From the NCBI GenBank assembly GCA_031370785.1, contig JANMQY010000004.1:1-59086 (forward strand): a DNA stretch of 59,086 nt, given 5' to 3'. This document shows positions 17,861 through 20,800 of this stretch, in pieces (within the stretch, counting starts at the first letter, position 1; each line of letters opens with the position of its first letter). The DNA is from Candidatus Eiseniibacteriota bacterium. GTDB lineage: Bacteria; Eisenbacteria; RBG-16-71-46. The position numbers are program-made.

Positions 17861-20800
17861 CTCGGCGACCTGCACGTGGCGCTCGGCAGGCTCGTCGAAC
17901 GTGCTCGAGACCACCTCGCCCTTGACCGTGCGCTGCATGTCGGTCACTTCCTCGGGCCGCTCATCGATCAGCAGCACGATGAGCATGACCTCGGGATGGT
18001 TCTCGGTGATCGCGTTCGCGATCTTCTGGAGGAGGACGGTCTTTCCGGCCTTGGGCGGCGAGGTGATGAGCGCGCGCTGGCCTTTTCCGAACGGACACAG
18101 CAGGTCGATGATGCGGGTCTCGAGGCAGCGATCCTTGGTCTCGAGCTCGAGCTTCTCGTGCGGATAGAGCGGCGTCAGGTTGTCGAAGAGGATCTTGTCC
18201 TTGGCCGCCTCGGGGCTCTCGAAGTTGACGGCCTCGACGCGCAGCAGCGCGAAGTAGCGCTCCCCTTCCTTGGGGGGGCGCACCTGCCCCGACACGGTGT
18301 CGCCAGTGTGCAGGTCGAAGCGCTTGATCTGCGATGGCGAGACGTAGATGTCGTCCGGGCCCGGCAGGTAGTTGTACATCGGGGAGCGCAGGAAGCCGTA
18401 TCCCTCGGGCAATATCTCGAGCACGCCCTCGGCGAAGATCAGGCCGTTCTTCTCGGTCTGCGCTTCGAGAATCTTGAAGATCAGCTCCTGCTTGCGCAGG
18501 CCGCTGGTACCCTCGACGTTCAATTCCTGGCACAGGCGGAGGAGCTCGGACATGGTCATGCCCTTGAGCTGGGTGAGCTCCATCGTCTGCGCGGGGGTTG
18601 TCGGGGTGGCTGGGGTCTGGACCGGAGTAACCGAAGATTCCATGCGGGTTCGCCTTTGAGATTGTGGCGTGGCCTCCGAGCTGCGGGCCGAGGACCCATG
18701 CGTCGGAGGTGTGGCCGTGGCCGCGTCGTCTAGGTGACGCGTGCGGGCCGGAGGTTAGTGGTGAGGGGTGGTTGGGTTCGTGTGACTCGCGAAGAGTCTC
18801 GAACGAATGCCTCGAATGATTGGGAACGAACGGTGGGTCAGCGGACGTGCTCGGGAAGCTACGTCAATGGGGAGTCGCGGCGGCGTTCGGGTCTCGAGAT
18901 TGGAAGGTCACTCGATCTCGTCCCGGAGCCAACCAGCACACGGAATGTTATGAGGCACCCGGGAAGCTGTCAAGCACTTGCTCGACCAACGCGCGGCCTA
19001 TTTCCAAGTCTCGCTCCGTGCATTCCCCGCGACACCGCATGCGCTTCGCACCGGGCGCGCTGAGCGATTTCCCCCGCGGCGCCGGCGCGGAGACTGGCGC
19101 ACCGTGTGTTTGCAGGCCTTATGCGCGGGGCGAAGCGCATCGTTCGCATGGCACACGGGTTGCCCTTCTGATCGAACGGCGGTGACGCGGGGCTGCGTCC
19201 TACCATCCGAGCCTGCCATCTTCAGCGCGGCTCCCGCACCGCCCATCATCGATCGAGACGCCCCGGCCCAGAGAACCGGGGCGTTCTCATTTGGAGCCGG
19301 GCGCCCCAGCCGGGCGCCCCAGCCAACCTGTCAGCGCGACGGCCGCCGGATCGGCACCGTGACCGTGACGGTCGGCGGATCCATCGTGCACCAGTCGGGC
19401 AGTGCCTCGGGACTGACTTCCACTCGCACCGTGTCGCGCTTGCCGTCGATGCGCACCGGGGCGAGCACCAGGCTGTCGAGCCTGCGCACCGCGGTCTCCG
19501 GCCCGATGATCGTGACGTAGGGCGGCATCACGTACGCGGTCGAATACGCGTCGGGCCCGAAACCCGGAACGCCCTCGACCCGTGCGGCAACCGGCACGCG
19601 CCGGCGGATCTTGCGGTCGAGCTGGAACTCGAGAATACGCGGCCCGACGACGCGTTCGACCTGCAGGCCCTCGTTGGCGGCGACCGGAAGATCCTCGGCG
19701 CTCACCGCGCGCTCGAACCGCCCGCGCCCGACACCGGCGAGCGAGATGCGGAGCACCGGCTCGCTCAGGCGCACCCGGATCAGCTGCTTGCCGGTTCCGC
19801 GCAGCTCGGCGAGCACCGCGGAAGGCACCGGACCCGAGAGCGCGAGCGAATCACCGATGTCGGTGACCTGGATCGGGAACGAGACCGTCATCCTGGCCGG
19901 CCGGTCGGTATACACATTGAGATAGACCAGCACCGCGAGCAGCAGCGCGACCAGCTTGAGCCCGAGATTGTCGAACAGCAGTCCGCGAAGCAGACTCATG
20001 CATCGGCTCCCTGCGCGGCATCGGCCGCTTCGTCCTCACCCGCCTCTTCGCCTTCGCCCGGCTTTCTCAGTCCGTGGCGCTCCATGCGTGAATAGAAGGT
20101 ACGCCGCGTGAGCCCGAGCAGTCGCGCGGCCAGGCTCTTGTTGCCGCGCGCCATCTCCAGCGCCTGCACGAGCAGCTCGCGCTCGAGCACTTCGAGCGAG
20201 AGGCCTTCGGGCGGGATGCGCGGCACCCAGCCGACGCCGCCCGGGCCCGGCTCGGCCGCCTCGGGCCTGGCGAACGACAGGTGCTCGACGCCGATCGTCT
20301 CGCCGCCGGCGAGGATCATCGCGCGCTCGAGCGTGTTCTCCAGCTCGCGCACGTTCCCCGGGAAGGCATAGCGCTCGAGCGCGCGGAGCGCGTCGGGCGT
20401 CAGCTGCTGGGCCGAGGAGCCGTGATTCACGAGGAAGTATTCGGCGAGGCCCGCGATGTCACCGGGCCGCTCGCGCAGCGCGGGCAGCCGGATCGGGAAC
20501 ACGTTCAGGCGGAAGAACAGGTCCTCGCGGAACTGGCGCGCGCGCGCCATCTCCTCGAGGTCGCGATTGGTCGCGGCCACGATGCGGGCGTCCACCGTGA
20601 TCGGCTGATTGCCACCGACGCGGGTGAAGGTCTTCTCTTCGATCACCTGCAGCAGCTTGACCTGCAGGCTCATCGGCATCTCGCCGATCTCATCCAGGAA
20701 GATGGTGCCGCGATGCGCGTTCTCGAAGCGGCCCGCCTTCTGCCGCACCGCTCCGGTGAACGCGCCCTTCTCGTGGCCGAACAGCTCGCTCTCGAGCAGG

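Follow-up and report, generated by a model that had tools for sequence, protein, structure and literature searches.

CsrB/RsmZ and CrcZ are two-component-driven noncoding RNAs with a repeated single-stranded motif, and CrcZ is also a sigma-54 decoy RNA. GlmY is another sigma-54 decoy RNA, as the available portions of two reports describe it (PMC6075780, PMC7073468). The Pxr small RNA of Myxococcus xanthus lies behind its own sigma-54 regulator, and the accessible text of its report presents the first loop as essential (PMC5684412), while the 6C RNA of Actinobacteria, according to the part of the source at hand, pairs through C-rich loops without chaperones (PMC6486639). For the Eisenbacteria, a literature search that covered main texts and only a minority of subscription papers found no study of small or noncoding RNAs, no paper joining sigma54, a small RNA and YbbR, and none presenting YbbR as a kinase accessory. 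Here we describe a predicted small RNA gene from uncultured members of this phylum, located in a window of 59,086 nucleotides, the whole stretch of DNA that was analysed.

The RNA gene sits inside a 690-bp gap between rho (17336-18643, minus strand; TIGR00767, 716 bits), its divergent neighbour, and a convergent operon on the minus strand that encodes a sensor histidine kinase (21422-22810; HisKA and HATPase_c domains, start codon uncertain), a sigma-54 response regulator (19996-21417; receiver, AAA+ and Fis HTH domains) and a YbbR-like protein (19331-19999; PF07949 above cut-off, with an N-terminal hydrophobic stretch). Facing rho is a sigma-70-type promoter (18945-18973, minus strand) that matches the consensus at 10 of 12 positions (shuffles, 0.0). 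On the plus strand, a two-part upstream activating site (19017-19050) precedes a -24/-12 sigma-54 promoter, TGGCAC-N5-TTGC (19149-19163), which an initial annotation had already reported and which recurs in all 64 distinct copies. Judging from promoter spacing, the transcript would start near 19175 and extend to about 19292, so that the predicted small RNA is about 118 nt long and not the ~130 nt first proposed. The plus strand folds into a 19-pair stem (5′ strand 19178-19198, 3′ strand 19225-19243; fold and covariation agree) that carries a C-rich open loop of 26 nt (19199-19224), followed by a second hairpin. The z-score is -3.05, equalled by 1 of 200 shuffles, versus -1.78 for the minus strand of the same stretch, and the loop is predicted to be unpaired apart from a weak 3-bp hairpin. 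The terminator claimed for this locus survives in part: a terminator-like 3′ hairpin is present (19255-19288) and runs into a short U-rich tail ending at 19292, but the tail is weak and a strict terminator scan did not call it.

Comparison of copies bears out the covarying stem of the initial annotation. In a plain MAFFT alignment, not fitted to any model, 81.8% of cells are paired as against 41-51% for slid partners, and compensatory changes are seen in 18 of 28 pairs; the 3′ hairpin shows two-sided changes in 8 of its 9 pairs and is 93.5% paired. A model-fitted alignment of the 64 distinct copies, which leans to the model, has two-sided changes in 23 of 28 pairs, and because the sequences are related none of these covariation figures is a probability. 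A covariance model built on 52 copies, with stricter filters applied for the genome tally, places the RNA in 48 of the 59 genomes of the window's family (f1) and in 0 of 90 genomes from 16 other families. It is single-copy in 48 of 49 carrying genomes, the remaining one having two copies. A DNA search matched 29 of 61 genomes, and the core was found in 25 of 30 fetched loci, each time with the promoter. The 12 of 27 loci from which the RNA had been thought missing or out of range prove to be mostly pattern misses, although four inspected loci (G022, G028, G033, G085) do lack it, one of them in a 99%-complete genome, so the RNA can be lost. In G004 it takes a branched, derived form with a low covariance-model score. 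Insertions of TetR and S41 peptidase genes recur on one flank or the other of the RNA gene (L033:2780-4581, L085:2841-4073). The f3 genomes of several tallies include one marked unpublished (G038), which underlies none of the positive claims.

As an independent check, a metagenome scan with a pattern that included neither promoter nor 3′ strand returned 74 matches, 48 of them with promoter and closing strand, 18 with neither, 2 with the strand only and 6 cut. A promoter-plus-loop pattern run on the genome collection also returned 74, with the closing stem in 44; the other 30 were dropped as chance, 29 by the stem filter and one (L048) by eye. Thirty of the stem-bearing matches are titled Ca. 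Eisenbacteria, and several of the other 14 are identical to f1 loci. Viral matches were discarded, all five being without promoter and stem. Rfam 15 gave no match in the window at the gathering cut-off, and the best local hit (E 0.73, 12 of 40 bits) falls far under the cut-off; the ftsZ-DE hit that the initial annotation quoted at E 0.11 was not recovered. The RNA had also been held distinct from another at 41304, rightly, since the covariance model finds no match there. By eye, back-to-back hairpin-rich noncoding stretches lie near that second RNA (~41210-41310, minus strand; 41320-41405, plus strand), the minus-strand one ending in a strong U-tail.

The locus combines three features of a sigma-54-dependent, trans-encoded small RNA: a -24/-12 promoter at fixed distance, an activator site about 100 bp upstream, and a noncoding covarying structure with its own 3′ hairpin. 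An expression look-up returned two RNA-labelled runs (X1 and X2; 0.09 of words) with long contigs from a relative about 95% alike and flat depth over the whole stretch, and such contigs cannot show a small RNA. That the RNA gene is real we consider very likely. A stand-alone sigma-54-driven small RNA is well supported, since promoter, activator site, stem and 3′ hairpin are all conserved. As judged from sequence, it is an uncatalogued family of a known kind, conserved, with its own predicted activator-dependent promoter and an exposed C-rich loop, and its role is probably that of a familiar type of regulator.

The putative two-part activator site is new here and goes beyond the earlier description. 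Upstream regions share CGTGCA, a spacer of 17-21 bp and TGCG-N3-CGCA, ending at a median of 98 bp before the -24 box; in the window the halves occupy 19017-19022 and 19040-19050 and are 17 bp apart. The pattern, derived from the 63 upstream regions themselves, occurs in 48 of them against a mean of 2.2 and a maximum of 6 in shuffles. In a scan of 58 promoters with a matrix trained on the locus, the small RNA locus ranks first (30 bits; next, 20.2). An upstream enhancer laid out as found here is what sigma-54 activation needs. At least 16 sigma-54 activators are encoded in the host genome, and the CGTGCA half-site is common ahead of sigma-54 promoters across the phylum. The neighbouring response regulator is the candidate activator: next to ybbR it keeps one recognition helix in f1, f2, f3, f9 and f10, and f11 retains the kinase-regulator orthologue at another location. 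Several families retain the regulator yet show no RNA in the ybbR slot, and in f13, which does have a counterpart RNA, no clear orthologue of the regulator was found (0 of 2; best 37-43% in 3). On balance, we lean toward the regulator of the kinase-regulator-YbbR operon as the activator. Further sigma-54-type promoters stand before protein genes at 40976 (minus) and 51203 (plus) in the window and at C133:132894 in G000, and at an unrelated locus in f10 (L233, L234) a sigma-54-driven, multi-hairpin noncoding stretch has a similar activator site.

The loop, once described as invariant and 30 nt long, is conserved but neither: it spans 18-28 nt (median 26) in the 64 copies, with 52% C and 13% G, and the exact two-box motif occurs in just 19 of them. 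Box 1 of the window (CCYACC, 19199-19204) is found as CCUACC in 30 copies and as CCYACC in 53; box 2 (GAGCCUGCCAUC, 19209-19220) is found in 42, GCCUGCC in 58, and GCC-N-GY alone in all 64. The starts of the two CCYRCC units are separated by 13 nt, and tandem boxes show this preferred spacing in 60 of 94 cases. Within the boxes, the two common substitutions exchange C and U, and either base can pair with G; the copies compared form a partly motif-selected set. Single-base differences in the length of the inter-box spacer rule out a peptide, and the loop is under no open-reading-frame constraint; nor are the boxes a perfect anti-SD.

Conservation speaks for the promoter, activator site, fold and distribution; the identity of the activator, the expression of the RNA, its pairing and its effect we infer. 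Our main reading, to which we assign a probability of roughly 45%, is that the RNA is a chaperone-free pairing small RNA switched on by the neighbouring kinase-regulator-YbbR operon. A sigma-54 activator would bind the two-part site and fire the -24/-12 promoter, the long GC stem would protect the RNA and keep the C-rich loop open, and the loop would pair, with no help from Hfq or ProQ, through short CCYRCC seeds to G-rich sequence close to where several mRNAs begin, lowering their translation. Neither Hfq nor ProQ was found in the 100%-complete host genome.

Searches for targets bear on this reading in two ways. The rough gene caller yielded 2807 host genes, preceded by canonical GGAGG sites, and because gene starts come from this caller, target sites can be missed. 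Exact loop complements in the host genome reach at most 14 nt and lie inside coding regions, and an unconstrained duplex ranking of 2730 start regions gave noise. A contiguous-helix ranking gave four leads, all rejected: the rpmE site occurs only in G000 among 30 loci and lies upstream of the -10, the site at a PDZ protein gene only in G000 among 23 loci, the pairing codon at the ileS start is kept in 5 of 29 orthologues, and the sequence at C133:132894 is itself a sigma-54 promoter. In 41 genomes, a start-codon complement pattern gave 36 scattered matches at unrelated genes, and one placed upstream of the SD gave 5, none conserved, both judged from the matches listed. Eleven of 47 tRNAs have complements of at least 9 pairs, which 13 of 200 shuffles also reach, and complements in the rRNA operons do not surpass those of shuffles (9 and 13 of 40). 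No long contiguous, conserved mRNA complement thus appeared in the leads and patterns checked. Since the leads failed on conservation and tRNA and rRNA matched shuffles, we take the result to argue against one long-paired target; it is compatible with short or bulged seeds at many G-rich sites and also raises the standing of a decoy.

The leaders of three rejected leads show further features. That of rpmE (L31; window ~11720-11800, minus strand; L180-L209) has, in many of 30 loci, a hairpin ending just before the ribosome-binding site, with no Rfam match at E 0.05 in three loci, and is a possible L31 feedback leader. The PDZ protein gene (L327-L349; G000 C64 ~35300-35460) has a conserved GGAAC-type promoter, presumably ECF sigma-like, and a conserved motif immediately ahead of its ribosome-binding site. 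The ileS leaders (L357-L385) carry a conserved hairpin with a U-tail after a GGTACCGCG-like motif, a layout that we take to resemble T-box leaders.

The strongest rival, possible but in our view the less probable account, is a protein decoy, in which tandem boxes, spaced by 13 nt and borne on a helix of conserved sequence, would bind and titrate an RNA-binding protein so far not linked to RNAs of this sort; a KH protein such as KhpA is encoded in the host. The top seven stem pairs change almost only on one side, which suggests that the sequence of the helix is itself conserved, and the similar boxes in tandem keep their preferred spacing, although they number only two. The failure to find an RNA complement fits a decoy, as does the precedent of sigma-54 decoys such as GlmY. 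As to the protein, RapZ, Ro60 (TROVE), Hfq and ProQ are all missing from the host genome, and CsrA is present but the loop has no GGA, while a KhpA-B protein is encoded; the wide variation among the loops of other families weighs against the decoy.

Those other families place the RNA in a wider setting. Downstream of ybbR, which is found in 113 of 117 genomes of the class, a sigma-54 promoter and a long hairpin RNA occur in 3/3 f2, 13/13 f11 and 3/3 f13 genomes fetched, in each family facing an HU/IHF gene and not rho. One f3 genome has a cut-off candidate and f4 an imperfect one; 21 of 23 ybbR-downstream gaps in f4, f5, f7, f9, f10 and f15-f18 hold no such RNA. GCCAUC-N1-2-CCA, a motif chosen after inspection, is found in 32 of 63 f1, 3/3 f2 and 3/3 f13 RNAs (21 and 13 of 2000 shuffles), GCCUGCCAC with a 13-nt repeat is found in two f11 copies, and MAFFT aligns GCCA-Y-C in the RNAs of all four families. 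The f1 covariance model (R1) reaches the f13 RNAs at E ~0.09 and misses those of f11 and f2, and a model built on f11 (R2), which finds 26 of 29 f11 genomes, 0 of 58 f1 genomes and one weak f16 match, misses the f1, f2 and f13 RNAs. The models do not cross-match, and we treat the f2, f11 and f13 RNAs as probable positional counterparts, their homology resting on synteny and short motifs, and not as proven homologues. An Rfam scan of 15 loci from other families gave no match at E 0.05. In f11 and f13, ybbR stands apart from the kinase and regulator genes, which makes ybbR the constant neighbour. The f11 RNA (L287-L295, L322-L325; for example L293:2035-2135) is 100 nt, lies directly before a same-strand gene and has no Rfam match in three f11 loci scanned; those of f2 and f13 (L178:590-805, L179:590-780, L296-L298) are ~190-215 nt, the f2 form with two competing folds.

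In the host, ybbR is part of the kinase operon, and the gene for diadenylate cyclase is found on a different contig (G000 C17:65717-66547) without ybbR. A bolder proposal, which we regard as rather doubtful, starts from an old kinase-regulator-YbbR envelope signalling unit common to at least four Eisenbacteria families. The RNA would be its rapidly evolving output and would act as a decoy for a protein, as yet unrecognised, with specificity for tandem YGCCAYC/CCYRCC boxes, YbbR being a kinase accessory and not a diadenylate cyclase partner.

Other readings are unlikely. The RNA might sequester or imitate a different RNA (tRNA arms, fragments or another small RNA), as CGAGCCUGC is complementary to the T-arm in many tRNAs and the 3′ part of the loop resembles the tRNA-Ala 3′ end; the CG needed for the T-loop varies, however, and the tRNA and rRNA complements do not exceed shuffles. 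Still less probable is that the locus makes no functional transcript and is a DNA element, attenuator or double terminator. The weak U-tail and the f11 counterpart just before a same-strand gene would suit it, but the fold is strand-specific with G-U pairs, promoter and activator site are conserved, and no f1 gene lies downstream on the same strand.

The initial annotation stressed rho, and the arrangement it described does hold for 38 of 50 copies, which are divergent from rho within 1 kb; 6 are separated from it by inserted genes, at 1.6-3.1 kb, one has the opposite orientation (G013, L025 / L103, pointing toward rho), and 5 are on another contig or have rho not placed. A functional tie fares poorly: loop pairing with rho leaders is no better than shuffles (52 loci; mean -10.0 versus -9.1), and in two f3 genomes ybbR adjoins rho and the RNA is absent. 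A Rho decoy, or a regulator of rho acting through its leader, is therefore very improbable despite the common divergence and a C-rich, G-poor loop, given the inverted copy, the counterparts that face HU, the f3 genomes, the lack of leader pairing and a usual rut site far longer than this loop, and rho is probably a bystander.

The locus adds an RNA family that can be curated, complete with its promoter, activator site and alignment, and the literature search found no small-RNA study for the phylum. The host has no Hfq, ProQ, RapZ or Ro60, so the partner of the loop would show how such RNAs work without known helpers. Because ybbR lies within a kinase operon and apart from the gene for diadenylate cyclase, YbbR may have a second role that can be tested, and a box-reading decoy, if true, would be a new protein-RNA titration system. 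As a design the RNA is familiar, and as long as it lacks a target its biological pay-off is moderate.

The RNA belongs to none of Pxr, GlmY and 6C, and the hallmarks of GlmY/GlmZ (RapZ encoded in the genome), CsrA sponges (multiple GGA loops) and bacterial Y RNAs (a Ro60 gene in the genome) were not found. It differs from CsrB/RsmZ and CrcZ in having no GGA or AANAANAA repeats and only two boxes. With 6C, as the consulted text describes it, it shares a C-rich loop in a high-GC, chaperone-free host, with an accessible C-rich seed, and it serves as the model for the pairing proposed here; 6C has C-run loops on several hairpins, whereas here a single loop carries CCYRCC boxes under a sigma-54 promoter. 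GlmY, in the available account of QseE-QseG-QseF, is likewise a sigma-54 small RNA beside an operon for a kinase, a regulator and an extra envelope protein, but it is a decoy for RapZ, which the host lacks, there is no sequence match, and YbbR is not QseG (PMC6075780); by analogy, YbbR may play the accessory role of QseG. Pxr is the closest in design. It forms three stem-loops and its gene immediately follows pxrR, whereas the RNA described here has one long stem with a 3′ hairpin, no Pxr sequence, and is convergent on its operon. Both occur in a GC-rich host without Hfq, function lies in a loop in Pxr and probably does so here, and Pxr too is an RNA of ~110 nt with a predicted sigma-54 promoter and enhancer, beside a kinase (PxrK) and an NtrC-like regulator (PxrR) (PMC5684412, PMC5568312).
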